From positions 2,205 to 66,204 of the forward strand of contig CANPGM010000016.1 in assembly GCA_947573605.1 (NCBI GenBank): a stretch of 64,000 nucleotides of DNA. Reading direction: 5' to 3'. Source of the DNA: an uncultured Roseburia sp. (GTDB lineage Bacteria > Bacillota > Clostridia > Lachnospirales > Lachnospiraceae). The notes below the pieces were generated by a model, which was not told the DNA's origin, ran no database searches, and worked only from the letters and a program-made list of their open reading frames with translations. The position numbers and the translations under genes were made by a program. Positions 4,351 to 18,105 of the stretch are shown here, piece after piece (position 1 is the first letter of the stretch; the number at the start of each line of letters is the position of its first letter).

Positions 4351-5565
4351 TTACTTGTAGTCGCTATTTATGATATTGTGATATGCAATTGTCATTCTCC
4401 CGTTAATGGTTGAAACTCCGATTACATTTTGGCAATAAGAAACCGCAGGGGGAACAAAAATAATGTTTTTAATTTCATAATTTCCATAATCGGAGGGTAT
4501 GTCAAGCAATGTCAAATTAGTGACACCCAATTCCCTCTTATTTTTCCCATAGTAACTCATGACTTTTGCTGTTTTTTCCGCTAAGCGATTCCTGTAAGAG
4601 TTATATGTATTCAACAGTACGGCGTCTATCAAGGTCATAGGCAGCTCAGCAAGAAATTGCAATACAAATACCCTATTCCGTTTTAACGCCTTTGCTATTC
4701 TTTTATGAACCTGCACCGCATTTTCAGCAAAAGTTTTTCCTGCATCATACTTATAATTAATTCTAATACCAGAAGTCAGATTTGACATCGCCTCGTTTTT
4801 ACTTTGCCGGATGCTAACGGGTATCCCTACTTCACACCGTTTTGGATAGTTTTGTAAAAACTGTGTTACAAGGTAACTATTGACGGAACAGCCTATTTTC
4901 TTTGCGTTGTCTATTATTCTTTGTGTTTCGTCAACAGACAACGTTTCACATTTTATGTCGGATGAAACTGTTTTCCAATATTTATTGTGCAGGTGATAAT
5001 AATCCCGCCATGTAAAAAAACGGTTATTCCATTTCTGCTTACAGTAACGGGCATATAATTTTGCTGTTACAGACAACCCTTTTTGCGGCAGATTTCTTCC
5101 AAGCAAAGTAAGAGGCTTGTATGTAAGTCCAATAGCGGATAACGCATTCATAATATCTTTGACAAAATAGATGATGGATTTACCGTCGCCTGCTAAATGA
5201 TGTGCCATAATCAAAATCTGCGTGTTGTCCTCCGATGGTATGATAAAAACTCTAACTAATTCACCCTGATCAATTGCGAACGGAATTTTTTCATTTTGGC
5301 TCACAATCTCAATCCAATTCTTATTTTCATTCTCAATCGCTATTTTACAGCATGATACAGGTATTTTTTCATAATATGCACAACCATGTTCTAACATGAT
5401 TTTCGACATAGTAGCTTCATTTGCTCCAAACGCCTGTTTTACAGCGGCAGTCAGCTTTTGAGGACAAACTTTTCCTGCCATTTCAACACATACCGCGATA
5501 TAGACATTCGGTTCAAACAGATGCGGGCGTTCCGTTACAATTTCATTCATTTGCATAATCTCCAA
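4351..5565 (-). CDS. Stand-alone condensation-domain / alcohol acyltransferase-like protein
   Basis: HHLAGDG (HHxxxDG) catalytic motif, PVSIR, LGVTNL; no A/PCP domains. Confidence 0.7.
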   Translation of the reverse strand: MEIMQMNEIVTERPHLFEPNVYIAVCVEMAGKVCPQKLTAAVKQAFGANEATMSKIMLEHGCAYYEKIPVSCCKIAIENENKNWIEIVSQNEKIPFAIDQGELVRVFIIPSEDNTQILIMAHHLAGDGKSIIYFVKDIMNALSAIGLTYKPLTLLGRNLPQKGLSVTAKLYARYCKQKWNNRFFTWRDYYHLHNKYWKTVSSDIKCETLSVDETQRIIDNAKKIGCSVNSYLVTQFLQNYPKRCEVGIPVSIRQSKNEAMSNLTSGIRINYKYDAGKTFAENAVQVHKRIAKALKRNRVFVLQFLAELPMTLIDAVLLNTYNSYRNRLAEKTAKVMSYYGKNKRELGVTNLTLLDIPSDYGNYEIKNIIFVPPAVSYCQNVIGVSTINGRMTIAYHNIINSDYK

Positions 5566-5613: not shown

Positions 5614-6480
5614 TTATCGCCGCCATTTCCGCAGCCCGCATGATTCGATCGCATGAACCGGACAGGCCTTTTTGCATGCTCCGCATCGAATGCATTCCAA
5701 ATCGTTTGCATTTTTAACCGGATCTGCCTGCATTTTACAAACATCGGCACAGACGCCGCAGCCGATACATTTTTCCTGATCAACCCGATAACGAAAAACA
5801 GAAATTGGGTTAAATACGGAATAAATTGCGCCTAACGGACAGATATATTTGCAAAACGGACGGTATATCACTACAGAAAGAAAAATCGTAACAGCCAACA
5901 GCACATTTTTCCAGGCATAAAGCCATCCGATCGCACTCCGCATGGACTGATTCAGCAGCACAAGAGGAATCCCGCCCTCTAATGTACCGGCAGGACAAAT
6001 AAGCTTACAGAAATAAGGCGCTCCCTGTCCGAGGACATCAACCAGAAACATCGGCAGAAGAATGACAAATACTGCCAAAATTACATATTTCAGCTTCCTC
6101 AGCGCTTTATCGCCCCAAAAGGTCTTTATTTTTTTCGGAAACGGGATTTTATGCAGCAAATCCTGTACCAGTCCGAAGGGACAGAGGAAACCGCAGACAA
6201 ATCTGCCGATTAACGCACCCGTAAACATCAGAAAACCGGCCACATAAAATGCGAATTTGAAATTCCAGCTTCCGATTACTGCCTGCAGCGCTCCTATCGG
6301 ACAAGCTCCCACGGCGCCCGGACAGGAATAGCAGTTCAATCCGGGAACGCAGAGATTTTTCAGCTTCCCTTTGTATATTTTTCCATGAACAAATCCCATG
6401 AAATAACTGTTGGTAAGCAATGCCCAAAGCGCCTGAATGCCGTGACGCTTCCATTCATTTGTTTTTTTCTCTTTATCCAA
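5614..6480 (-). CDS. Membrane 4Fe-4S binding protein (NapH/polyferredoxin-like)
   Basis: CVPGLNCYSCP, CGFLCPFG, CKLICPAG, CKYICPLG plus two C-terminal CxxCxxCxxxC clusters; TTG start 6480 overlapping upstream stop. Confidence 0.85.
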   Translation of the reverse strand: MDKEKKTNEWKRHGIQALWALLTNSYFMGFVHGKIYKGKLKNLCVPGLNCYSCPGAVGACPIGALQAVIGSWNFKFAFYVAGFLMFTGALIGRFVCGFLCPFGLVQDLLHKIPFPKKIKTFWGDKALRKLKYVILAVFVILLPMFLVDVLGQGAPYFCKLICPAGTLEGGIPLVLLNQSMRSAIGWLYAWKNVLLAVTIFLSVVIYRPFCKYICPLGAIYSVFNPISVFRYRVDQEKCIGCGVCADVCKMQADPVKNANDLECIRCGACKKACPVHAIESCGLRKWRR

Positions 6481-6622
6481 TTCCGATACACTCCATACAG
6501 ATATTGATTGCTTTTTCCAATACGACTGACATCTCTCCGCGGTAAATTCCAAAAGCCATCAGCAAAAGTCCTAAGACGGCGGCAATCACTCCGGTACGCG
6601 GAGCGCGGAAGAAGCGGCTCAT
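6473..6622 (-). CDS. Small membrane CxxC peptide (CD1871A-like family)
   Basis: 49 aa, one TM helix, ends KAINICMECIGIG; ATGA overlap with TlpA gene. Confidence 0.8.
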   Translation of the reverse strand: MSRFFRAPRTGVIAAVLGLLLMAFGIYRGEMSVVLEKAINICMECIGIG

Positions 6623-7728
6623 TGTTGTACCCCTTTCAGAATTTCCTCCACAATACTTTTCCATTCCTCTAAAGAATGAGCGCCCGTATAAGTCTCGCCG
6701 ACAATATTTCCTTCCTTATCGACAAAAAACGTCTCCGGGACAGCATTGATTCCCGCAAGCCTTCCGTTTAATAATCCCGTATCCGGAATCAGGAACGGAT
6801 ATGTCGCGCCGGTCCGCTCCGCAAGAAGTTTTGCCTTCTCTACCACTTCTTCATCTACGCTGCCTGATTCGCCGATTGTGTCCAGCACAATTCCGACAAC
6901 ACCCACGCCCTGATCCGCCATTTCATTTTTCAGCATTTCGAGCTCCGGAATCTCTTTGACACATGGTGAACACCACGTTGTAAATATATTTACCAATGTC
7001 AGATCATAATCCGCAAACATTTCCTGCGTATAAGATTCTCCTGTAATATCTTCCATAGAGAACTCTCCCACATTGACCATTGTTGCGGAACCGGACGACT
7101 CTTCCTCATCCAGAGAAGTCATCGGGATCAATTCATAGGAAATACCTGTTATCTCCTCCTGCATCGCATCTTCAACTGCCGGATTTGTACTCAGATAATA
7201 CGAATATGCGCCGTCTTCGCTTTTACCGATTTCCTTATGTTCCGTACACCCCGTCAGCTCGTTAAGCCTGCCTGCCGCATCCGAATCATAAATACCGATT
7301 GCGCCTATCGCTTCCAGACTGTCGGCCCAGTCATAAAAACCGTTACCGCCGTTCTCTACTTCCATATCCCGCTGTTCTTCCGTCATAGATTTCCAGCATA
7401 AAAAGGCTGAGCGAATCGCCGTTTCGTCATCGTTCACTTCCCATAGAGGAAGCATCGCCACTTCCTTTTGATCCATACGCTCCAAAAGACTCTCAGGCAA
7501 AGAAAATCTCAATCCCATAAACGAATATTCGTAAACTTCCTGACTCGGAATCGTAAGATCAGACGGTTTGTACATTTCATGCTCCATTCCGGAGTCCGCC
7601 TCCAGATCCTCTACATCCGTATTGTCTTCAGAAGGGGACTTTTTTTCATTGGCACAACCGTTTAATAAGGTCAGACAGCATAAACCGGACAGAAACAAAG
7701 CGTACCATTTTTTCCTATTTATCTGCAT
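6619..7728 (-). CDS. TlpA-family thioredoxin-fold lipoprotein with long N-terminal extra domain
   Basis: Lipobox LLNGC; TWCSPC active site; AVPETFFVD cis-Pro motif. Confidence 0.85.
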   Translation of the reverse strand: MQINRKKWYALFLSGLCCLTLLNGCANEKKSPSEDNTDVEDLEADSGMEHEMYKPSDLTIPSQEVYEYSFMGLRFSLPESLLERMDQKEVAMLPLWEVNDDETAIRSAFLCWKSMTEEQRDMEVENGGNGFYDWADSLEAIGAIGIYDSDAAGRLNELTGCTEHKEIGKSEDGAYSYYLSTNPAVEDAMQEEITGISYELIPMTSLDEEESSGSATMVNVGEFSMEDITGESYTQEMFADYDLTLVNIFTTWCSPCVKEIPELEMLKNEMADQGVGVVGIVLDTIGESGSVDEEVVEKAKLLAERTGATYPFLIPDTGLLNGRLAGINAVPETFFVDKEGNIVGETYTGAHSLEEWKSIVEEILKGVQQ

Positions 7729-7795
7729 CGTTCTCATTCTCCTTTTCCTGTTTTCACAAATTTTAATCATTCCTGCAATTTTCCATCAATCGGGA

Positions 7796-8965
7796 TTATG
7801 CGCTGGCCAGTTTTTGAATCGACTCAATGATTTCCTGAAACTGCTGACGCATCTCTTCGTCTACCCAGCGCATCATGCCTTCGACATCCTCAATCTGGCT
7901 TTTTGTCAGCTCTGCGCTCTGCTCGATTCTGTCCCGAAGTTTCTGGCGTCGTTCAACAAGCTCGTGCGTCGTTTCCACCATCTCATGATGATTGGCAAGC
8001 GCCTGCGCCTGTGTAATCCATATTCTTGTGTCATACAGCTTACACTTTGAAAGCTGACGCATAAGCCGTTCCGTATAATAACTCAAATCATCATTATTAC
8101 GTTCAAACTTCTCACGCTGCTTAATCGCCTCCAGATAATACTCCCATACGGTATTCAGTTCCGCGGCATTTTCCACATGAAATTTTTCACAGCTATAATC
8201 AATTGCATTCGTAATATTTACATATTTTATTTTTATCTGATTCAACAGAACAATCGCCCGCTTAATACTTGCCTCAGCTTTTTTATATTCCGTTTTGGAA
8301 TTCATCAAACGCAGACTAATCAGGCTGACTCCCGCCACCGCGCAGAAAATAAGAATCGTCCATCCAAGCTGCATGGGAATTTCCAGAATAAACTGTAAAA
8401 TTAGCAGTACCAGCGCGGCGGTAACGGAAAGGCCGATTACAATATATACTGCATTTTTCAGCTTTTTCTGCTCGTGAATCAAATCTTCTTTAAACAGCTG
8501 CCAGCCTTCTTTTTCACGCTCCAGATACTTCATATCTTTATTCAGCGTATCACGGTAGGCTTCGTTTGACTTCAGCCGGTTGATAGCGCTCGGAACATTC
8601 TGCTCCTCCTGCTGCATCTGCATATACTGTACATCCGTAATTTTACGCTCCGTATGAAGAAATTCGTCGCGCGCCTTATTCAGACTCGTGATATTGTAAG
8701 CGATTTCCGTCAGCGCCGCACGCTCATCCTCAGGCAGCTCTTCAATTGCCTGAATATCATTTAAATAAGAAGTTACCACACGATATTCCGCCTTTATATC
8801 GTCAATCTCCCTTGCCGTCTGAAGCGCCTGCTCCAAATGCTCCACAACGTATTGTTCTACCTTCTGCGGGCGTTTTTTATCCCACTCCGTAAGGACATGA
8901 TCATTTAATTCGTCAAACTTTTTTTCCAGAGTTTTTTCTTTTTTTCTTTTTTTAAAAAAATGCAT
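7796..8965 (-). CDS. Uncharacterised coiled-coil protein with two central TM helices
   Basis: 389 aa, helical/charged flanks and hydrophobic AVYIVIGLSVTAALVLLILQF / LGWTILIFCAVAGVSLISL pair. Confidence 0.75.
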   Translation of the reverse strand: MHFFKKRKKEKTLEKKFDELNDHVLTEWDKKRPQKVEQYVVEHLEQALQTAREIDDIKAEYRVVTSYLNDIQAIEELPEDERAALTEIAYNITSLNKARDEFLHTERKITDVQYMQMQQEEQNVPSAINRLKSNEAYRDTLNKDMKYLEREKEGWQLFKEDLIHEQKKLKNAVYIVIGLSVTAALVLLILQFILEIPMQLGWTILIFCAVAGVSLISLRLMNSKTEYKKAEASIKRAIVLLNQIKIKYVNITNAIDYSCEKFHVENAAELNTVWEYYLEAIKQREKFERNNDDLSYYTERLMRQLSKCKLYDTRIWITQAQALANHHEMVETTHELVERRQKLRDRIEQSAELTKSQIEDVEGMMRWVDEEMRQQFQEIIESIQKLASA

Positions 8966-8976
8966 GCTCTTTACCC

Positions 8977-9810
8977 TTATATTTCACAATGATTGATATA
9001 TTCCGCTTTCCATCCGTAAAGCTGCTTTTTGAGTTCTCCATCTTCCAACAGATCGCCGCCGCTTTGCCGCAGCCACTCTTCTACCTGCTCCGCAAAACTT
9101 TCCGCCGCCGCTTTGCCGCCTGCTTCAATCAGTCTGTCCGTAAGCTCTTTTTTCTCCGCCTCCGCAATGGAGTACCGCTTTGCCGCAGCGTCAAAGTCCG
9201 TCCTGTCTTTCTGATACCAGAAACACGCAAGCGCACAATGCAAAGTAACCTGATTTCCGTTTTCCTCATATGCTTTTAAAAAACAGTCGGCAGCTTCCCG
9301 GAATAAAAATAATCCGGCATAGGCGGTTCCCAGATTATGCCGGATATTTCCGGTAAAAACCCGGTTCTCCCTGCATTCTTCCTCCATAGACAAAAGCTTT
9401 TGATATTCCGACGCCGCACGATGATACTTCTTCTGTTCCATATAGCGGTCCGCTCTGATTTTTCTGCTTTCAAACGGAGACTTTGCCTGCATTTTTGAGA
9501 GTGATTCCAGTATACGCTCCGCAGCTTCCTCATTGCAATAGGCCGTCTTTTCCAGTAAAAGCGACACTGCCTGCACCGGATGCCCCGCCTTTTGTCCGCA
9601 GAGCCGAAGTTCGTCCGCAAGCGGTTTCGCGCTCAGTTCTTTTTCTACCCATCCGAAAAAAGATTCCTGAAAAAGAGATTCCTCAATCAGGTATGGATTC
9701 TGTTCCATACAATAACACAATTCTTCGAGCGAGTAAATATTGACGGAATAATTCTCCAGATAATACGGCGTTTCCGCCGTTTTAAACCGACATAGCAACA
9801 ATTCCCCCAC
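8977..9810 (-). CDS. TPR-containing uncharacterised protein
   Basis: ADRYMEQKKYHRAASEYQKLL and HNLGTAYAGLFLFREAADCFLKAY TPR-like helices; 11-bp spacing to neighbours. Confidence 0.75.
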   Translation of the reverse strand: MGELLLCRFKTAETPYYLENYSVNIYSLEELCYCMEQNPYLIEESLFQESFFGWVEKELSAKPLADELRLCGQKAGHPVQAVSLLLEKTAYCNEEAAERILESLSKMQAKSPFESRKIRADRYMEQKKYHRAASEYQKLLSMEEECRENRVFTGNIRHNLGTAYAGLFLFREAADCFLKAYEENGNQVTLHCALACFWYQKDRTDFDAAAKRYSIAEAEKKELTDRLIEAGGKAAAESFAEQVEEWLRQSGGDLLEDGELKKQLYGWKAEYINHCEI

Positions 9811-9821
9811 AGCTTTGCCTC

Positions 9822-11051
9822 CTAAACAGACATGGTATAGTCCCAGCTCTTTCCGGAGCTTTTTACGATTTCTCCAAATCCCATATCCGCAATATGTATC
9901 TGCACTTTCGTGTCGGACAGAGGCTTTGCCGTAATCCGCAGCCTTGTCGTTCGTTCCTTACGCTTTGGCAGATCCGAAAGCGTAAGCCGTTCAATTTTCG
10001 CGTCTTTTCTCCCCGGAAGCTGAAGCCAGAAATCAATTTCTCCGGTATTGCCTAAAATCACTTCACACTCCCGCATAGTTTCATAACAATTTTCCCCGGC
10101 AGCGACGAGAGGATAAAAGTCTGATTTTCGATTGTCCTTTATCTTTATACTCAGATTCATCTTCATTTCGTTGTCGCCGATATAGAGAAACGGCCATGCT
10201 TTTTCTCCCTCCAAAACGGCCGCCGCATAACAGGCGCCTTTGGAGTAAAGATTTTTTCCGATAAAAACACGTCTTCCTTTGCACAAAAACGCAATCGATT
10301 GCTGCATCCATTCCCCGTCAAATCCTTCACCGGCCAGAAATGCGGAGGAAATAACACGTTTTTTAAAACAGTCCTGCAAGATCCTCAAAAAATCCCGGTC
10401 CCTGTTTTCTCCCGAAAACTCGCATACTGCCTTATCGAGCGTCACCACCTGAGGCGATGTTTTTATATCTCTCGTCAAAAGGCAGCAGTTCAGCGTCTCT
10501 TTTCGCAGATCAAATAAAAATACGTCATGCAGCCAGAGCTCATCCTTCTGGTTTAAGACATAGTAATAAAAACTCTCTTTCCGGTTCATAATCGCTACGT
10601 TTTCTTTTCCGACTCCGAACTCCGCAGCAGCAGCAAAAAACAATTCCGTCAGTTCTTTTGTCACTTTTTCAACGGAAATCACCACCTTATCCGGTCTTCC
10701 TGCAGTCCCGGATTTATCTGTAAAGTACAGCAGCGTTTTAAAATAGCCTGCCAGCAAATCCTTTACAAAATATGTTTTCCGCTCAATTTCAATCGCTTCT
10801 CCCGAAAGAGCGCGCGTAAGCAGACGGTCAACCGGCTGTTCGCCTTTCCGCCCGGCCTCCCTTTTGGCCTCTTCCCCAATTCTCCAATAGCCGGATTCCT
10901 CCGTTTTATATATCAGCGCCGGAATCAAAAACACTTCACTGCCTTCAATCAGACTCAACGTTTCCGGCTCCTCCATCCCTGATTTGTAACAGGTTACAAC
11001 CGCATTATCGTCATCCAAATCAACGCCGACATAATAAAAGCGCTTTGTCAT
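9822..11051 (-). CDS. Degenerate Hsp70/actin-fold protein (DUF5716-like)
   Basis: VGVDLDDD (cf. Hsp70 IGIDLGTT), AFLAGEG, YSKGACYAA and a C-terminal beta-sandwich resembling the Hsp70 substrate-binding domain; DUF name from recall. Confidence 0.65.
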   Translation of the reverse strand: MTKRFYYVGVDLDDDNAVVTCYKSGMEEPETLSLIEGSEVFLIPALIYKTEESGYWRIGEEAKREAGRKGEQPVDRLLTRALSGEAIEIERKTYFVKDLLAGYFKTLLYFTDKSGTAGRPDKVVISVEKVTKELTELFFAAAAEFGVGKENVAIMNRKESFYYYVLNQKDELWLHDVFLFDLRKETLNCCLLTRDIKTSPQVVTLDKAVCEFSGENRDRDFLRILQDCFKKRVISSAFLAGEGFDGEWMQQSIAFLCKGRRVFIGKNLYSKGACYAAAVLEGEKAWPFLYIGDNEMKMNLSIKIKDNRKSDFYPLVAAGENCYETMRECEVILGNTGEIDFWLQLPGRKDAKIERLTLSDLPKRKERTTRLRITAKPLSDTKVQIHIADMGFGEIVKSSGKSWDYTMSV

Positions 11052-11071
11052 CCGTCCACCCCTCTTTCTCT

Positions 11072-14000
11072 TTACAGAATCGGAAATATTTCATGCGCCG
11101 CCGCCTGCATACGCTGATATTCTTCCATACATTTTTTTAAAGATTTCGTTTCCTTTAATGTTGCATAAAAAAACATATCGTTTAAAAGCGCATATCTGCT
11201 GTGTCCGTGTTCGCCATAGACGTCATTGCTGCATAGTCTGTCGCTGAACAAAACTTCCCGTTCTCCGGTTATTGGCTCTTCCGAAATATAATATTGCACC
11301 TCATCCCCAAAAAGCAGCAGAAACCCTTTTGTAAAAATCCCCGGATATACCTCCCTCATACGCTCCTCTTCATAATCTCTCCCGTTAAAGCAATAGCTTA
11401 TTGTCACGGAAGCAGACGGCGACGTATGATATTCCGCATAAAATTTATCATACAGCAAATACCTTTCATTCAAAGATTCGTCCAGATCTCTGAAAAAAGA
11501 AAAACAGATATTTCTACGGCAGTATTCCGACAAAAGCCGGTCTGCGAGCAGAAGCTGTTCTTTTGTCAAACGCTTTTTCTCAGCATAGGATTTCAACAGT
11601 CCCAGCCCGCAGGAATCATTTAATTCCCGATCCTTTAAATAACGCTCTTCAATATGTAAAAATACATGTGTAGGAACAACTGCGTCAAGCGCCAAATACA
11701 GATGCGAAAAAAAAGTCAGATAAGCCAGGCAAATCTTTTCTCTGCCGCCTCCGCTGCAATAACTTTCATAAATCCGTTCCACGCCTTCCAAATAATCCCC
11801 ACAATACAGCATCTGAATTAAAATCCGTTCTTCAAATGCCGTGTCCTTAATGTCGAATTTATCCGCCTCTCTCCAGATTTTTGCCATGCGTCCCACCGGC
11901 CCGCAGTAATATCTGCATAAATATTCTAAAATCACGTCGTTATATTTCCCACTGCAAAAAGCGGCATACGACAGCCGTACTAAAAAATCATCTTCTTTAA
12001 AACGTTCAGTAGTTATCCGATAGCTGCATATGGATACCAGACAGCCGGAATCCACAAAATCATATCCGTACATTTGCAGCAGTCGAAATGCATGATCAAA
12101 TAAATGCGCGTTTGAAAGCTCTTTTATAAGATACCTCCTGTCACGCCTGGAAAATGACGCATAATCCGCCTGCAGCAAATACCACTCCAGCCGTTCGTCG
12201 TATTCCCTGCCCGCAAAGTAACGTATTATTTCGGGCAGAAGCGCAGCCTTAAACGAACCGTTCACCTGTTCCGACTGAATCAATGCCGAAAAACTGACTT
12301 CGTCCGATTCCCGGAAAAGCGCCGCACGGTTTCGTTTGGAAAAAGCGTATACCAAATACGGAAGCGCCTGCGGCGCAAGTCCCATCGCATATTCCAGATA
12401 ATCCTCCGGGCAGAAAAGCGCTTCGTCATAATAGAGCTGCGGGTCTGCAAAAACATTTCCCGCCGAGTCAAAGAGCAAAACAATGTAATCTTTCGTATAT
12501 GCATAAAAATAAGCCGTTCCATCGTAAAGCGAAACCGTCTGCCACTCTTTCCATTGTTTTTGCACAATTACCGCCCTGTCAATATGCGGATGCTTACATG
12601 CCAGCTTATGGGTAAACAATACTCCGGAAAACTTCCCGGCCAATTCTTCATTTAATATGGGAAACTTTAGCATCTCGTTGTAAATAACGGCCAGATTCTC
12701 GTCAATATGCTCTGCCTCAAGCTGCTCCATTGCAAACTGCTCAATCGTGCGCCGGTATTTCTGGTAAACGTCCTCCTGCGTTTTGCGCGCTGCAATGATA
12801 TTGACAAACAATACTGCAAGCTGACGGTACGATAAACTGCTTTGATAACGGAAATACATCTGTATCATTTTAGGAACGTCACTGATTTCATTCGGATCCA
12901 TCGAAGAAAGAAACGCTTCGTATAAATTGGTAATCCGAAGCTCCCGTTTAATCCCGAGCGCAAACCATTTGTGGTAACGGACAGACAGTCTCTGACCCTT
13001 AATCAAATAGGAACAGATACAGGTCAACACAGCGTCAGTCGGTATTATTTCGTAACAGGCGCATAACACTTTATAAACGTGGCGGTCAAATTCTTTCTGT
13101 CTTGCTACCACCGCCACAATCTGAAGGGCAAGCTCTTCGGTAATCGCTTTCTGTCTGGCCGCCCAGTAAAGCACCTTTTTTTCAAACGCATTCATATGCG
13201 TAAGAAGATGCGGTTCCTGTCGGAGCAGATAAAATGCCTCCAGATAAAAACAGGGCGACGTGTTTCCCTTCATTACCCAACGTTCGATTGCCTTTAAACG
13301 CATTTCACTGCTTTCAAAATATTCTTTTCGGATAAAAAGCAAAATCCAAAATAATAGGGAACTTTCAGGATTCCGCAAAAACAGCGCTTCAATTTCCGCC
13401 GAAAGTCGGTCCACGTAAGCGCCCTCACGCTCCATAAGCGTACATAAATACAAATAATAGCCCCATTCCTCCGAAAGCCGATTCGTACAGCTTTTTTTGT
13501 AATCCTTTAAAATCCAGCCCGCCTCCTGTTTTTGACCGTGAAACAAAAGCGCCTGCGCACGCATCAGGCCGTAAAGCTCCTTTGACGGGTTTATTGCAAG
13601 AAGATGTTCCAATACCTGTATGGATTCTTTCGCCCAGGCACCGGTCGTAATACGGTTCAAACGGTAATCCGTATACAGACGCATCAGCAAAATACGTCCT
13701 GCGCCTGTCTCCGCGTGCGCAGTTACAGCTTTTTCCTCACGCTTTTTCCTCCGCGAACAGCAAACGGTAAAACACAACTGTTGTCCCGGAAAATCAAAGC
13801 AGATTCTCCCGAAATTATTCCCGGCATGAAGCTTATCCTCCCGGATATAAAATACAAAATAACAGGCGCTGCCCAGGAAATCCTCCCCCGTTATTTTCTC
13901 CTTTTCCGGTTCTAAGAAAGCGGCGTCTGAAGAAACCGTCCCGCTGATATATCCCCACATATTTTTTCGAATTACAATCTGTTCTTTTACATCTCCTGTT

Positions 14001-14623
14001 ACTCCGTAATATTCCGCATACTGCACGTCCAGCTTCAGACAAACGGGTTTCTTTGCGCCAATGGAAGTAAGATAACACTCCACCTTCTGGCCGGACGGAG
14101 GCTCTTTGCGCACCGCCTCATACAAAATCCTTTCACGCTCCCCGCTTTCTCTTAAGATATTGCGAAAACCGGATGTATAGAACATGCGGCAGGCTTTTGC
14201 ATAACTGTCTTCCGCAAGCCTGGTAAAATCATCGATGCCTTTTATTTTCCCTGTGGAAGCATCTAAAACGGCGCCGGAAATATACACAACAAAAGAAAGG
14301 CTGTATTCGCCCGTACTGCACACAACGGTAAATTCACCCTTATGAACGTCGCCGCAGGTTAAGCCTCTGCCGCAGAACCGATAGCCAATCCTCACTTCTT
14401 CCCCGCCGTCAAACTGTCTGGTCTGACACTCCATTCTGTTACTGGAAGAATAGAGAATCCCGCGCAGTTTTTCCTGGCCTGAGCCAAAAATTGAAAATTC
14501 GCCGGTGAAATCCTCTCCCTCCGGCACCTCTAATTCAATCCGCTGTTCCGAAAAGGATATTCCTGTTTTTCTATATTCAACTTTTCCCTTCGCAAGCTGC
14601 TCTATCCTCTTCTGCAAATCCAT
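11072..14623 (-). CDS. Large cytoplasmic scaffold, Ig-like N-terminal domains plus helical solenoid (DUF5717-like)
   Basis: About 1183 aa, no signal peptide, two beta-rich N-terminal modules, long TPR-like helical region, beta-rich C-terminus; AAGGA RBS favours ATG 14623. Confidence 0.7.
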   Translation of the reverse strand: MDLQKRIEQLAKGKVEYRKTGISFSEQRIELEVPEGEDFTGEFSIFGSGQEKLRGILYSSSNRMECQTRQFDGGEEVRIGYRFCGRGLTCGDVHKGEFTVVCSTGEYSLSFVVYISGAVLDASTGKIKGIDDFTRLAEDSYAKACRMFYTSGFRNILRESGERERILYEAVRKEPPSGQKVECYLTSIGAKKPVCLKLDVQYAEYYGVTGDVKEQIVIRKNMWGYISGTVSSDAAFLEPEKEKITGEDFLGSACYFVFYIREDKLHAGNNFGRICFDFPGQQLCFTVCCSRRKKREEKAVTAHAETGAGRILLMRLYTDYRLNRITTGAWAKESIQVLEHLLAINPSKELYGLMRAQALLFHGQKQEAGWILKDYKKSCTNRLSEEWGYYLYLCTLMEREGAYVDRLSAEIEALFLRNPESSLLFWILLFIRKEYFESSEMRLKAIERWVMKGNTSPCFYLEAFYLLRQEPHLLTHMNAFEKKVLYWAARQKAITEELALQIVAVVARQKEFDRHVYKVLCACYEIIPTDAVLTCICSYLIKGQRLSVRYHKWFALGIKRELRITNLYEAFLSSMDPNEISDVPKMIQMYFRYQSSLSYRQLAVLFVNIIAARKTQEDVYQKYRRTIEQFAMEQLEAEHIDENLAVIYNEMLKFPILNEELAGKFSGVLFTHKLACKHPHIDRAVIVQKQWKEWQTVSLYDGTAYFYAYTKDYIVLLFDSAGNVFADPQLYYDEALFCPEDYLEYAMGLAPQALPYLVYAFSKRNRAALFRESDEVSFSALIQSEQVNGSFKAALLPEIIRYFAGREYDERLEWYLLQADYASFSRRDRRYLIKELSNAHLFDHAFRLLQMYGYDFVDSGCLVSICSYRITTERFKEDDFLVRLSYAAFCSGKYNDVILEYLCRYYCGPVGRMAKIWREADKFDIKDTAFEERILIQMLYCGDYLEGVERIYESYCSGGGREKICLAYLTFFSHLYLALDAVVPTHVFLHIEERYLKDRELNDSCGLGLLKSYAEKKRLTKEQLLLADRLLSEYCRRNICFSFFRDLDESLNERYLLYDKFYAEYHTSPSASVTISYCFNGRDYEEERMREVYPGIFTKGFLLLFGDEVQYYISEEPITGEREVLFSDRLCSNDVYGEHGHSRYALLNDMFFYATLKETKSLKKCMEEYQRMQAAAHEIFPIL

Positions 14624-14649
14624 ACCCATCCTTTTTGCTTCGGATTTTA

Positions 14650-14709
14650 TTGCTTTTTTTTTTTACAAAGACTATTATAAATTATAAACTAATTTGGAGG
14701 AGTAATCAA
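14650..14709. promoter_or_regulatory. Overlapping divergent sigma70-type promoters
   Basis: Plus: TTGCTT(14650)-17-TATTAT(14673) with T11 run; minus: TTGATT(14709-14704)-17-TATAAT(14686-14681). Confidence 0.55.
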
Positions 14710-15800
14710 TGATAAAACATAAAGACCATTTCCACGGCAGCGATTTGGAAAAAATTGAAGCCGTATACGGCGTAAAAAAAGAAGAAATCATCAGCTTTTC
14801 CGCAAACGTAAATCCGCTTGGCGTATCGCCGCTCCTTCGGAAAACGCTCTCCGATAAAATTGACGCGATTACCTCCTATCCGGACCGGGAATACGTCTCT
14901 TTGCGCAGATGTATTGGGGAATATTGCGGCGCAGACCCTGAAAACATCATTGTCGGCAACGGTTCCACGGAGCTGATTTCCCTCTTCATTCAGATTGAGC
15001 GTCCGAAAAAGGCAATTGTAATCGGCCCCACATACTCGGAATACGAACGGGAGATATCGCTCGGAGGCGGCGCGGCTTTGTACTATCCCCTGAAAGAACA
15101 GGATGACTTCCGTTTAAACGTCACGGATTTTATTGCGCACTTAAACGAAAGCATCGATCTGCTCGTTATCTGTAATCCGAATAACCCGACGTCTTCCTGT
15201 ATCAAAAGAAAGGACATGCGCCGTATTCTGGATGCATGCAAAGAATACGACGTTTTTGTAATGGTAGATGAGACTTATGTGGAGTTTGCGGAACAGATGC
15301 AGGAAATTGATGCCGTTCCGCTTGCAAATTATTATAACAACATTATAATTCTCCGCGGAACCTCTAAATTCTTTGCTTCTCCCGGTCTTCGGCTCGGCTA
15401 TGCCATAACAGGAAATCGAGATTTAATAAAAGCTGTCAATACCAGAAAAAATCCCTGGACGATTAACTCACTTGCCGTAATCGCAGGAGAAACCATGTTT
15501 GGCGATACGGATTATATTCGGAAAACAAAAGATCTGATTTCCTCCGAACGCAGAAGAATCTATGATTTTTTCTCCGGATCTGATCAGTTTAAGGTATATG
15601 AACCAAACGGAAACTTTATGTTAGCAAAGATATTAAAAGAAAATTTAACTTCTCAGGACTTATTTGACCGCGCGATTAAGCAGAAGATGATGATTCGGGA
15701 CTGTTCAACCTTCCCGTTTCTCGATAACCGATATATTCGTTTCTGCTTTATGAACAAAGAAGATAACGACCGCCTGATTGCCTGTCTGACAGAGCAATAA
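14709..15800 (+). CDS. PLP-dependent class I/II aminotransferase (threonine-phosphate decarboxylase CobD / HisC-like)
   Basis: HGSD, FSANVNPLG, GNGSTE, CNPNNPT, VDETY, TSKFFASPGLRLGY. Confidence 0.88.
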   Translation: MIKHKDHFHGSDLEKIEAVYGVKKEEIISFSANVNPLGVSPLLRKTLSDKIDAITSYPDREYVSLRRCIGEYCGADPENIIVGNGSTELISLFIQIERPKKAIVIGPTYSEYEREISLGGGAALYYPLKEQDDFRLNVTDFIAHLNESIDLLVICNPNNPTSSCIKRKDMRRILDACKEYDVFVMVDETYVEFAEQMQEIDAVPLANYYNNIIILRGTSKFFASPGLRLGYAITGNRDLIKAVNTRKNPWTINSLAVIAGETMFGDTDYIRKTKDLISSERRRIYDFFSGSDQFKVYEPNGNFMLAKILKENLTSQDLFDRAIKQKMMIRDCSTFPFLDNRYIRFCFMNKEDNDRLIACLTEQ

Positions 15801-15879: not shown

Positions 15880-17157
15880 TTATGACAGCTCCTTTTTCCG
15901 GTTCTCATATTCCTCTCTGATTCTTTTAAATGTTTCCTCGTCTCCCGTTTCATTGTCGGGATGATATGTCTTGCACAGCGCCCGGTAACGCTTCTCAAGC
16001 TTTTCAGATGTGCTGCACCCGGAGAAAAATCCCTCTCTCGCCGATTTTGCTTCTTTTTCCTTCCTGTTACGCACTTTATCGCCGTGCCGGATCAGATTTT
16101 TCTTTATCGTATCCGCTTCTTTAATCTTCCCGACATATGTCTCAAAAACAGAAAGCGGCACATTTCCCTCATAAGAAGAAAACGCCTCTGAAATTTCCTG
16201 CAGCAGACAAAGATATTCTCCAAGATAAGATCGCAGTATATAATCTCCGCTTTCTTCCGCCAGCAGAGAATATTCCTCCACAAACAGATCAAATTCTTTC
16301 ATATGACCATTTAAGCTTTCGCATGCCTCCATGCAACGGCTCATATTTTTGTCTGTTTCGCCTTCCTTTTGTTCGACCTCTACTTCCTGCCAGAGACGGC
16401 GGATATTTTGCGCCGATTCATCATAATCTGTAGTGGAAGCTCTCATCTCTGCGCCCCACTCGTTCCACTCCAGTCCAAGCGAAATCAGGACGGAAAAAAT
16501 ACCAAATGTAAATACAAAATAGAGCACAACGCCGGACACAATTTCATACGCCGGAAATAACTTCAGATATTCAAACAGATGAACGCCAAATGTTCTATGA
16601 ATTTGAATGTCAAATAAAACAATTCCGCCAACGACAATTAATACGCCTGCCGACGCCAGAATTTTAAGCGCATGCGAAACAAAAAGGATAATTAATTTAT
16701 TCACGGCTTCTAAGAACGTAAACAGAAAACACGAAACCCTCTTTATAGCCGGCTTTTCTCCCACGTTCAGACTTTCGTAATCGCTTTTACAGATCTGAAA
16801 CAGCGCCGTATAGCAGAAATAAATTCCCGCATAAACATATTCCAGCAGATGAATGACGGCCCCAACCGCTCCCATAATCAAAGCGGAAGAAATCGTAAGC
16901 AGCCAAATCACAATAGCCGTAAAAATACCTCCGATCACAATTATCGCAAATACGATTACAACAACTTCCAGCGCTCCTCCAATGTCACGCGCTGCTTCAA
17001 ACAAAAGTGCAACGGCAAATGTAATCACAATAGTTCCGATAATTGCCAACGCCTTCTGCAGCGCTTTTGAAATCAGTCTGACGCCGGTAGCCGCTAAAAG
17101 GAGCGGCAGAGCAAGTAACGCCAATACATTTATCTTAATTATTTTTATAACCTTCAT
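15880..17157 (-). CDS. Multi-pass membrane protein with C-terminal J-domain
   Basis: Hydrophobic N-terminal 230 aa; C-terminal LEKRYRALCKTYHPDNETGDEETFKRIREEYE (HPD motif). Confidence 0.8.
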   Translation of the reverse strand: MKVIKIIKINVLALLALPLLLAATGVRLISKALQKALAIIGTIVITFAVALLFEAARDIGGALEVVVIVFAIIVIGGIFTAIVIWLLTISSALIMGAVGAVIHLLEYVYAGIYFCYTALFQICKSDYESLNVGEKPAIKRVSCFLFTFLEAVNKLIILFVSHALKILASAGVLIVVGGIVLFDIQIHRTFGVHLFEYLKLFPAYEIVSGVVLYFVFTFGIFSVLISLGLEWNEWGAEMRASTTDYDESAQNIRRLWQEVEVEQKEGETDKNMSRCMEACESLNGHMKEFDLFVEEYSLLAEESGDYILRSYLGEYLCLLQEISEAFSSYEGNVPLSVFETYVGKIKEADTIKKNLIRHGDKVRNRKEKEAKSAREGFFSGCSTSEKLEKRYRALCKTYHPDNETGDEETFKRIREEYENRKKELS

Positions 17158-17190
17158 CCCTGTCGTATGCCATCCTCTCCGAAATCGGTA

Positions 17191-18105
17191 TTATTCGAAT
17201 ATTGCAAACTCATATGTCATTGAAATAATGTACTCCCCCTTCGGATCGCTTACAATCGTAATTTTATCTCCCGAAGATTCGTTCCGATAAACCGCCTCCG
17301 TCCGATCCAGGTCTGCTCCGAAGAAGACCGTTCCTTCAAACGCATCCGGCAGACCATATACGCCGTCCTCTTTATGAACGATTCCGGACAGCGGCTGACC
17401 GACGGCCGCTCCTTTCCCGAAAATCATCTGGCTCCCTTTTACGGTCACAGACATGAGCGCGCATTCCTGCCACGGCAGTTCCTGTTCCGTTCCGTTTAAA
17501 ACAGCGATCCAGACCTGTTCGTCCGGATTGTGCAATGTAATCTGCTCGTAAGGCTTTACCTGCCTGTCACAGGTAAATTCCACATAATTCGCAATATCCT
17601 TTAACGATATCAGTTCTCCCTTCCACTGTGCCAGACGGGAAAACTGATCCGCGGCGAGAATCTCTTTCGACGGTTTTATCCAGTCGAAATACTTCGACAG
17701 CTCGGTTAGATTTGTAATCGTAAGCCCCAGGTAATTATTGCCTTCCGCACCCACAACCAGACTTTCCTGTATAGAGTCAACATTGATCCCGAAATAAGAC
17801 GGCGACGCATAGCAATATCGTACCTGATAAAACCCTGGATTTAGCGACGCATCCTGTGAAAATCCGTTTTCCTCATTTAAAACAACGCTGTAAGAACGCT
17901 GTGTCTGTTCGTTTATCATATAAACTTCAATCCTAAGGACCTTTTTTAAATCGCCGTTGAGCGTTTCAAACTCTTTCGGAACCTCTTTAAGTTCTATCAC
18001 GCATGGAATTTTACCCTCGTCCAGCTTACCGCTCCGGATACAGCCAGTCAGAAAAAACATAAAAAACAATAAAAAACCCGTACAAACCCATCGTTTTCGT
18101 CTCAT
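17191..18105 (-). CDS. Uncharacterised lipoprotein
   Basis: Signal peptide with lipobox FLTGC; 33 bp upstream of the J-domain gene. Confidence 0.75.
   Translation of the reverse strand: MRRKRWVCTGFLLFFMFFLTGCIRSGKLDEGKIPCVIELKEVPKEFETLNGDLKKVLRIEVYMINEQTQRSYSVVLNEENGFSQDASLNPGFYQVRYCYASPSYFGINVDSIQESLVVGAEGNNYLGLTITNLTELSKYFDWIKPSKEILAADQFSRLAQWKGELISLKDIANYVEFTCDRQVKPYEQITLHNPDEQVWIAVLNGTEQELPWQECALMSVTVKGSQMIFGKGAAVGQPLSGIVHKEDGVYGLPDAFEGTVFFGADLDRTEAVYRNESSGDKITIVSDPKGEYIISMTYEFAIFE

Follow-up and report, generated by a model that had tools for sequence, protein, structure and literature searches.

A window of 64,000 nucleotides from an uncultured Roseburia sp. (family Lachnospiraceae; contig CANPGM010000016.1) carries an operon of four genes, termed here A to D, that encode a large scaffold of the DUF5717 family, a DUF5716 protein with the fold of an Hsp70, a probable tetratricopeptide repeat (TPR) protein and a coiled-coil membrane protein. 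Comparison of gene content across the order Lachnospirales indicates that a larger cluster containing multiple Hsp70s has been pared down to this operon: by this comparison, Lachnospiraceae have kept the fast-evolving, non-catalytic parts and have lost all of the motors, the exchange factor and, from B itself, the lobe that binds exchange factors. Neither the operon nor the expanded cluster has been described, and both appear new to the literature on Hsp70 and on the DUF families. As to function, sequence features and predicted structures make it an evenly balanced proposition that the four products form a nucleotide-independent, membrane-tethered adaptor complex, which would work without a dedicated ATPase.

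A first-pass annotation of the window had described four genes spaced 11–20 bp apart behind a near-consensus promoter, and their coordinates, their sizes and the promoter were confirmed. The folds it had assigned to B (Hsp70) and D (two-helix membrane coiled coil) likewise hold, and that of C (TPR) is probable. Its description of the operon as uncharacterised also stands: the operon is conserved, and in the literature on DUF5717/DUF5716, on Hsp70-vWA proteins, on lidless Hsp70s and on Firmicutes Hsp70 paralogues we found no description of this system. Profile and structure searches recovered DUF5717, DUF5716_C and the Hsp70 fold, and assigned none of the proteins to a characterised pathway.

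Gene B and the Hsp70 fold

Residues 122-408 of B match the Pfam model DUF5716_C (PF18980) with an E-value of 3.5e-104 and 348.4 bits (gathering cut-off 34.7), and both A and B are clear members of their respective families, which in Pfam are names without an assigned function. The DUF5716_C model carries no flag of a relationship to Hsp70, and the single literature match for DUF5716 is a computational paper on mismatch-repair genes in cancer, which has no bearing on it. The relationship appears in the predicted structure: Searching with an AlphaFold2 model of B (predicted local distance difference test score, pLDDT, 85.9; predicted template modelling score, pTM, 0.73), Foldseek returned as top matches the nucleotide-binding domain (NBD) plus the beta part of the substrate-binding domain (SBD) of DnaK (E 5e-19, probability 1.0), with matches to DnaK, BiP and Hsc70 ranging from E 5e-19 to 1e-14, all at probability 1.0, and with Ssz1 and Hsp110 also among them (6sr6, 7x3k, 2qxl, 3c7n). 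By sequence, the Pfam HSP70 model (PF00012) does not match B at E ≤ 0.01, a PDB search with B as single query finds nothing, and for a profile built from B homologues DnaK is a weak match (E 0.037, over residues 7-125). The homology of B to Hsp70s is thus transitive, because its sister-family relatives B1 and B2 match both the HSP70 and the DUF5716_C models.

With canonical Hsp70s (DnaK with DnaJ and GrpE, HscA, HscC), B shares the two-domain fold of an NBD and a beta SBD, but it lacks their ATP-binding loops, lobe IIB, hydrophobic linker and lid. When B is aligned with the DnaK of its own genome and with sister-family Hsp70 paralogues, the phosphate-1 loop GIDLGTTNS reads GVDLDDDNA, the phosphate-2 loop DLGGGTFD reads DLRKETLN, and the adenosine motif LVGGSTRIP reads LAGEGFDGE. 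Both phosphate loops are unconserved among 11 Lachnospiraceae genera (the phosphate-1 loop reading, for example, DLGDKVS, DLCPDTT or DINDEYT), and such free variation is expected when no nucleotide is bound. Lobe IIB, the part of an Hsp70 that binds GrpE and adenine nucleotide, is reduced to 27 residues aligning to an 83-residue segment of DnaK (24-40 residues in Lachnospiraceae B proteins) and to a single helix in the model (217-229). The hydrophobic interdomain linker of DnaK, DVLLLD, is replaced by the polar and nearly invariant GDNEMK (residues 292-297), and the beta domain that follows (~299-409) ends the protein, leaving no alpha-helical lid. What is conserved lies elsewhere, in the last helix of subdomain IIA (CKGRRxFxGKNLYSKGACYAA), in the linker (residues 257-299 for helix and linker together) and in the second half of the beta domain. 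Since there is no lid, lobe IIB is nearly gone and the phosphate loops vary freely, B is probably a pseudo-ATPase, an Hsp70 fold without ATP-binding loops whose motifs and model suggest that nucleotide binding has been lost. The model superposes best on DnaK in its domain-docked states (template modelling score 0.57-0.59 for 7kru, 7krv and 7krw, versus 0.46-0.48 for the undocked 2kho, 4ani and 2v7y), which points to a rigid, docked pseudo-Hsp70 serving as a binding module.

The closest parallels in behaviour would be Ssz1 and Hsp110 (Sse1), which like B have an Hsp70 fold with a degenerate cycle, docked domains and a role as partner or adaptor. Both bind ATP and keep lobe IIB, whereas B is more degenerate, without the motifs or lobe IIB and without a Zuotin-like J-partner, and the likeness is one of analogy, not orthology. 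Among bacteria, DnaK derivatives beyond HscA and HscC are unexplored according to a 2026 review (PMC13580251).

The expanded cluster and the history of the locus

In other families of Lachnospirales, the DUF5716 model finds tandem genes of 520-550 aa, and the loci around them (nine fetched initially and two more later; L016-L024, L117 and L128) contain, in those examined, clusters of seven to nine genes at the same chromosomal site as the operon. The first gene is A, often split at around residue 300 into a sandwich gene (~400 aa) and a solenoid gene (~900 aa); there follow, in order, a lidless Hsp70 (H1), a GrpE-domain protein (560-645 aa, the domain being C-terminal), a protein that matches both the DUF5716_C and the HSP70 models (B1), another Hsp70 (B2), an Hsp70 with a vWA domain in place of the lid (H4) and a TPR protein of ~390 aa that is orthologous to C, after which three of the nine complete loci also have a D-like hairpin protein. 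The expanded cluster therefore shares A, B (as B1), C and sometimes D with the operon, along with a flanking aminotransferase gene, valS or both, and adds to them three motif-intact lidless Hsp70s (H1, B2 and H4-vWA) and the GrpE-domain protein. Canonical ATP motifs are intact in H1, B2 and H4, whose identity between families is 56-84%, compared with 20-48% for A, the GrpE-domain protein, B1 and C. The phosphate loops of B1 are already degenerate, and unlike B it keeps lobe IIB (81-94 aligned residues).

The additional components appear to have been lost from Lachnospiraceae. By tblastn, the genome from which the window derives contains one canonical Hsp70 only; this is a DnaK, and its contig has a J-domain match ~3 kb downstream of it. 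The same search found nothing that corresponds to H1, B2, H4 or the long GrpE-domain protein. An H1 query that recovered seven of seven known carriers found an orthologue in none of the 300 genomes of a class-wide sample, in which all ten Lachnospiraceae lacked it. In one further genome (G029, family f6) the expanded cluster appears to be dispersed over three contigs (C8, C15 and C19), of which one carries DUF5717, another the GrpE-domain gene with B1, and the third a further DUF5716-like Hsp70.

The first-pass annotation had named conservation of the gene neighbourhood as a check on the operon, and the neighbourhood is conserved. Among 80 genomes at species level, each inspected with as much as 10 kb of flank, A, B, C and D were present in 79, 80, 79 and 77, respectively, always in identical order, and the misses that we examined (L031, L034 and L048) fall at contig ends; over 84 loci the median gaps are ~19, 11 and 16 nt. 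A-B-C also recurs in 12 of 12 further Lachnospiraceae genera, with D detected in eight of the 12 and an extra Hsp70 in the cluster of none. Although the loss of five genes and of all ATPase motifs might suggest that what remains of the ancestral multi-Hsp70 cluster is decaying and without function, four intact open reading frames (ORFs), one of them 3.5 kb long, keep their order and tight spacing in at least 77 of the 80 species and, at 30-50% identity, in the 12 genera, and many residues are invariant in the alignments. Such conservation calls for purifying selection and effectively refutes decay, to which we attach next to no probability.

The family to which A belongs is confined to the order: DUF5717_N is present in 146 of the 301 Lachnospirales genomes sampled, representing 96 of 158 genera, and in 32 of 32 of the Lachnospiraceae among them, and no genome outside the order scored above the family cut-off in samples of the class (300 genomes) and the phylum (401 genomes). 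In 15 of 16 genomes sampled for both, A and B were either both present or both absent. The chromosomal address is unusually stable across distant families, whether the cluster there is expanded or reduced (L021, L016, L117, L128 and L130): the divergent aminotransferase gene, valS (directly downstream of the cluster), or both flank these loci as well as many in Lachnospiraceae. Given that the same flanks recur in distant families, A to D constitute one operon that is vertically inherited at a fixed site. No copy was found among 72,556 plasmids. Four records from human faeces labelled 'Bacteriophage sp.' match A (MT835486.1, which is our locus L130, MT835719.1, MT835988.1 and MT837190.1); the one that we examined, MT835486 (labelled UNVERIFIED), carries the whole operon beside rarA, valS, a glycosyltransferase gene and MoxR, and because of these flanking genes we regard it not as phage but as a mislabelled fragment of a bacterial chromosome.

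The stability of the locus bears on whether the operon might be an immune or conflict system, in which a fast-evolving sensor scaffold (A and C) would act with a two-helix membrane effector (D). In the literature, the nearest idea comes from the GAP1-N2 part of the GTPase- and NTPase-centred conflict systems of Kaur, Burroughs, Iyer and Aravind (eLife 2020; PMC7159879), which include an Hsp70/GrpE theme: the firmicute neighbourhoods described there hold Hsp70, GrpE, a truncated second Hsp70, a beta-sandwich-repeat protein fused to TPR or DnaJ, and membrane-proximal components, and firmicute and actinobacterial neighbourhoods alike combine Hsp70 and GrpE with an FNIII-repeat protein fused to DnaJ or TPR. 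The resemblance is one of spirit. Those systems are defined by DO-GTPases plus GAP1, whereas no Pfam match to a GTPase or to GAP1 was found in A-D or in the genes of the expanded cluster; they are also patchy and conflict-type, whereas the DUF5717 locus is fixed and vertically inherited. Rates of evolution would suit a conflict role, in that A, C and D diverge far more rapidly than the housekeeping gene beside them: relatives match the window proteins at median identities of 41% (A), 46% (B), 37% (C) and 40% (D), as against 78% for the adjacent aminotransferase. D is moreover a two-helix membrane protein, and such proteins are common effectors of abortive infection. Defence systems are, however, typically patchy and mobile, and the operon is a single-copy locus at a fixed site amid housekeeping genes across the order, with neither a plasmid copy nor a genuine phage copy in the record examined. 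Its PADLOC matches are no better than noise, D does not match SLATT, and no nuclease, protease or other effector domain accompanies it. The role in defence that the first-pass annotation had entertained is therefore unlikely, the locus being fixed and vertically inherited, without a reproducible PADLOC match or a plasmid copy, and we consider a conflict system of this kind very improbable.

Scaffold, probable TPR protein, membrane hairpin and surroundings

Protein A matches both DUF5717 models over their full length and far above their shared gathering cut-off of 25 bits: DUF5717_N (PF18984) at E 1e-257 and 857.7 bits (model positions 2-874 of 875), and the C-terminal DUF5717 model (PF18983) at E 1e-94 and 317.6 bits (positions 1-306 of 306). 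An AlphaFold2 model built from 30 homologues (mean pLDDT 86.9, pTM 0.58) divides the protein into the domains listed in Table 1. For the tandem sandwiches, Foldseek finds ASH/PapD-like Ig domains (ciliary central-pair proteins, the SPD-2 domain of CEP192, and 2qsv), and for the solenoids TPR/HAT scaffolds (Naa15, PRPF6, Ski3 and Ctr9), with no enzyme among the matches. The two methods thus agree with the Ig/solenoid scaffold of the first-pass annotation and add to it a third beta domain in mid-protein. A PDB sequence search returned no relative of A, and neither a transmembrane segment nor a signal peptide nor an enzymatic domain was detected; the best-conserved stretch is the first sandwich (around residues 55-111). 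As modelled, A is a large, cytoplasmic, non-enzymatic scaffold of Ig-like sandwiches and TPR-like solenoids.

In protein C, a conserved domain of ~60 residues at the N terminus precedes probable TPR repeats at around residues 90-210. Its best Pfam TPR score lies below the cut-off (TPR_2, 22.7 bits against 27), and its weak PDB matches are all TPR proteins (OGT, MamA and designed CTPR). It is homologous to the 393-aa protein of an expanded cluster (tblastn E 2.6e-7), which is clearly a TPR protein (TPR_2 E 2e-21, 74.6 bits). On a metagenome contig seen in two samples, B and C are fused in frame into a 692-aa protein (P0028, L131 positions 921-2999) through a six-residue linker, LRRSGK; the C part is 40% identical over 277 residues, and a gene for a 388-aa D-like protein follows in the position of D. 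None of the 84 genome loci has such a fusion; this one example is a direct hint of contact between B and C.

In D, a hydropathy scan places a hydrophobic hairpin with a very short outer loop at around residues 169-223 (window 8297-8461), between a coiled coil (1-168) and a conserved KIKYVN..DY..EKYHV block that leads into a C-terminal coiled coil, with both ends of the protein predicted to be cytoplasmic. D matches no Pfam or NCBIfam family, and the profile of an alignment of 20 homologues, three of them from expanded clusters, finds only keratin coiled coils in the PDB. A possible kinship with dynamins, raised by a PADLOC LeoBC match (E 4e-4) in one of the 20 homologues, was dismissed as compositional noise in view of that single occurrence and of the keratin matches. 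NCBIfam, PHROGs and PADLOC returned nothing informative for A-D, and together with Pfam they matched no enzymatic or defence family to any of the four proteins.

Table 1. Positions of the operon genes, promoter and neighbouring genes in the window, and predicted domains of protein A (residue numbers).
Feature	Position	Strand	Remark
Gene A (DUF5717 scaffold, 1183 aa)	11072..14623	minus	ORF open from 14629
Gene B (DUF5716 pseudo-Hsp70, putative, 409 aa)	9822..11051	minus	
Gene C (probable TPR protein, 277 aa)	8977..9810	minus	GTG start
Gene D (coiled coil and two-helix membrane hairpin, 389 aa)	7796..8965	minus	
Sigma-70-like promoter, TTGATT-17 nt-TATAAT	14681..14709	minus	10/12 consensus matches
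Class I/II aminotransferase gene	14709..15800	divergent from operon	Pfam Aminotran_1_2, E 2e-54
Membrane J-domain gene (425 aa, polytopic, J-domain at C-terminal end)	15880..17157	minus	Pfam DnaJ 28.0 bits (cut-off 27.8), HPD at residue 399
Lipoprotein-like protein without family (304 aa), precedes J-domain gene	pair spans 15880-18105	minus	
ResA/TlpA-like thioredoxin lipoprotein (383 aa) and polytopic 4Fe-4S (Fer4_5/Fer4) membrane protein (312 aa)	5614-7770	minus	
A: beta-sandwich	residues 22-127		AlphaFold2
A: helical linker joining the sandwiches	residues 130-187		AlphaFold2
A: second beta-sandwich	residues 196-289		AlphaFold2
A: flexible loop	residues 296-300		AlphaFold2
A: first alpha-solenoid	residues 302-669		AlphaFold2
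A: mid-protein beta domain splitting the solenoid in two	residues 671-735		AlphaFold2
A: second alpha-solenoid	residues 743-1054		AlphaFold2
A: fourth beta domain	residues 1060-1131		AlphaFold2
A: two C-terminal helices	residues 1143-1182		AlphaFold2

The gaps A-B, B-C and C-D measure 20, 11 and 11 nt. The start of A at 14623 is that of the public gene call (P0121, 1183 aa), and an AGGA ribosome-binding site is better placed for it than for a start at 14629. The -35 hexamer of the candidate promoter overlaps the start codon of the divergent aminotransferase gene. Among relatives in which the start of A could be placed, 19 of 23 have a promoter match of at least 9/12 upstream of A, and 18 of those 19 sites sit 10-56 nt from the start; because the intergenic regions surveyed are AT-rich and the survey had no shuffled control, this recurrence is weak evidence for a promoter.

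The promoter and the domain composition of A and D touch on a possible structural role, in which the proteins would form an element of the envelope or of the cell cycle (a coat, a division or shape factor, or a sporulation assembly), with A and D as a lattice that the Hsp70s of the expanded form would assemble or disassemble, much as Hsc70 uncoats clathrin. An order-specific, vertically inherited locus that is universal within the family would fit such an element, as would the mixture of alpha-solenoid and beta-sandwich in A, reminiscent of eukaryotic coat and tether proteins, the coiled-coil membrane hairpin of D, and a sigma-70-like promoter, which suggests vegetative expression. The argument is nevertheless analogical throughout, its promoter support is weak, and no sporulation-type promoter or neighbour was seen. 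It also overlaps the adaptor complex proposed above instead of excluding it, and as an account of its own we judge it unlikely.

On its 3' side, the operon has no convincing terminator after D in the window sequence, and the gene for the thioredoxin lipoprotein starts 25 nt beyond D. A fifth gene of the operon it is not: relatives of it and of the 4Fe-4S membrane protein gene turn up less than 10 kb away in one of the 80 genomes, and there upstream, not after D, which makes it a local neighbour and nothing more. With the 4Fe-4S membrane protein it could be a small extracytoplasmic thiol-redox module. Further along, a 404-aa ORF (window 4351-5565, minus strand) gives a sub-threshold match to a condensation domain of non-ribosomal peptide synthetases (28.5 bits against a cut-off of 30.6) and stands alone, with no further modules of such a synthetase close by.

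On the 5' side, the divergent aminotransferase gene separates the operon from the membrane J-domain gene, which the first-pass annotation had linked to it. This link did not survive: none of the 80 relatives has the J-protein or its lipoprotein neighbour in the 10 kb on either side of the operon, the divergent gene intervenes, and B offers no ATPase site to stimulate. The partner Hsp70 of this J-protein is presumably the housekeeping DnaK; among known Hsp70s, HscC is paired with a membrane-anchored J-protein. In contrast to DnaK-DnaJ-GrpE, the operon encodes no J-protein or exchange factor, and there is neither an HPD motif nor a DnaJ match in A-D. The expanded cluster has no J-domain either, its sole HPD tripeptide being incidental and inside B2.

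The retained DnaK raises the possibility of a chaperone machine with a borrowed motor: A-D would be a platform that brings the housekeeping DnaK, together with DnaJ and GrpE, to a client near the membrane, either through C or through a pairing of B with DnaK. Such a machine would be in keeping with the ancestral cluster, which was built around motif-intact Hsp70s and an exchange factor, so that the client probably needs remodelling; with the canonical DnaK still encoded in the genome next to its J-domain match; and with the resemblance of B to Ssz1 and Hsp110 besides DnaK, as these two act by pairing with an active Hsp70. C would be a possible docking partner, since eukaryotic TPR proteins commonly dock the tails of Hsp70s. 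But those tails end in EEVD, and to our knowledge bacterial DnaK has none; Hsp110-type factors contact the NBD of their partner via lobe IIB, which B has lost; A-D contain no J-domain; and relatives do not keep the local membrane J-protein beside the operon. We think this arrangement rather unlikely. The chaperone-like role proposed in the first-pass annotation becomes doubtful for the Lachnospiraceae version more generally, every ATP-driven part of the ancestral cluster having been lost.

A proposed membrane-tethered adaptor and its implications

In the nucleotide-independent adaptor complex that we put forward, A-D would assemble on the cytoplasmic face of the membrane, with D as the anchor and A as the platform. 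B would be an adaptor or holder, frozen in its domain-docked shape, that binds a partner or client through its beta domain and the conserved surface of linker and subdomain IIA, and C would bridge to B. In Lachnospiraceae the complex would operate without an ATPase of its own. That the four proteins belong to a single machine, as the first-pass annotation had supposed, is the natural reading of the strict co-occurrence of the parts and of the one in-frame fusion of B with C.

Several points weigh against this proposal. Assembly into one complex is suggested by synteny, co-occurrence and that one fusion, and the loss of nucleotide binding by B by its motifs and predicted model; the Ssz1 of the yeast ribosome-associated complex reportedly still binds ATP, and by analogy B might retain some non-canonical ATP binding. 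Housekeeping DnaK, DnaJ and GrpE acting in trans could make the term 'ATP-independent' wrong. Membrane tethering may not be ancestral, as D, which is constant in Lachnospiraceae, is variable in the ancestral-type cluster, where six of the nine expanded loci (L017-L020, L024 and L117) have no D-like gene after that for the TPR protein. Finally, the fast evolution of A, C and D (median identities of 37-41% versus 78% for the aminotransferase) would also fit a conflict-related role.

A more far-reaching interpretation, which is tentative and which we regard as possible but doubtful, is that prokaryotes have, besides DnaK, HscA and HscC, a fourth Hsp70 system, one without a J-protein, in which a DUF5717 platform and a pseudo-Hsp70 organise several lidless Hsp70 motors at the membrane, and that the operon represents its minimal core, independent of ATP. 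If this were true, the platform and the dead Hsp70 would be the indispensable part of the system, because Lachnospiraceae discarded every motor and yet retain the platform under selection in all sampled genomes. The adaptor complex itself leads to predictions: B should not bind ATP, the four proteins should form a complex at the membrane, and B and C should be in contact.

In the gut of humans and animals, Lachnospiraceae rank with the most abundant bacteria, and 32 of 32 of their sampled genomes keep an operon of ~6.8 kb about whose role nothing has been described. Its descent from the multi-Hsp70 cluster of the sister families would make it a natural experiment, in which an ATP-driven chaperone machine has turned non-enzymatic.

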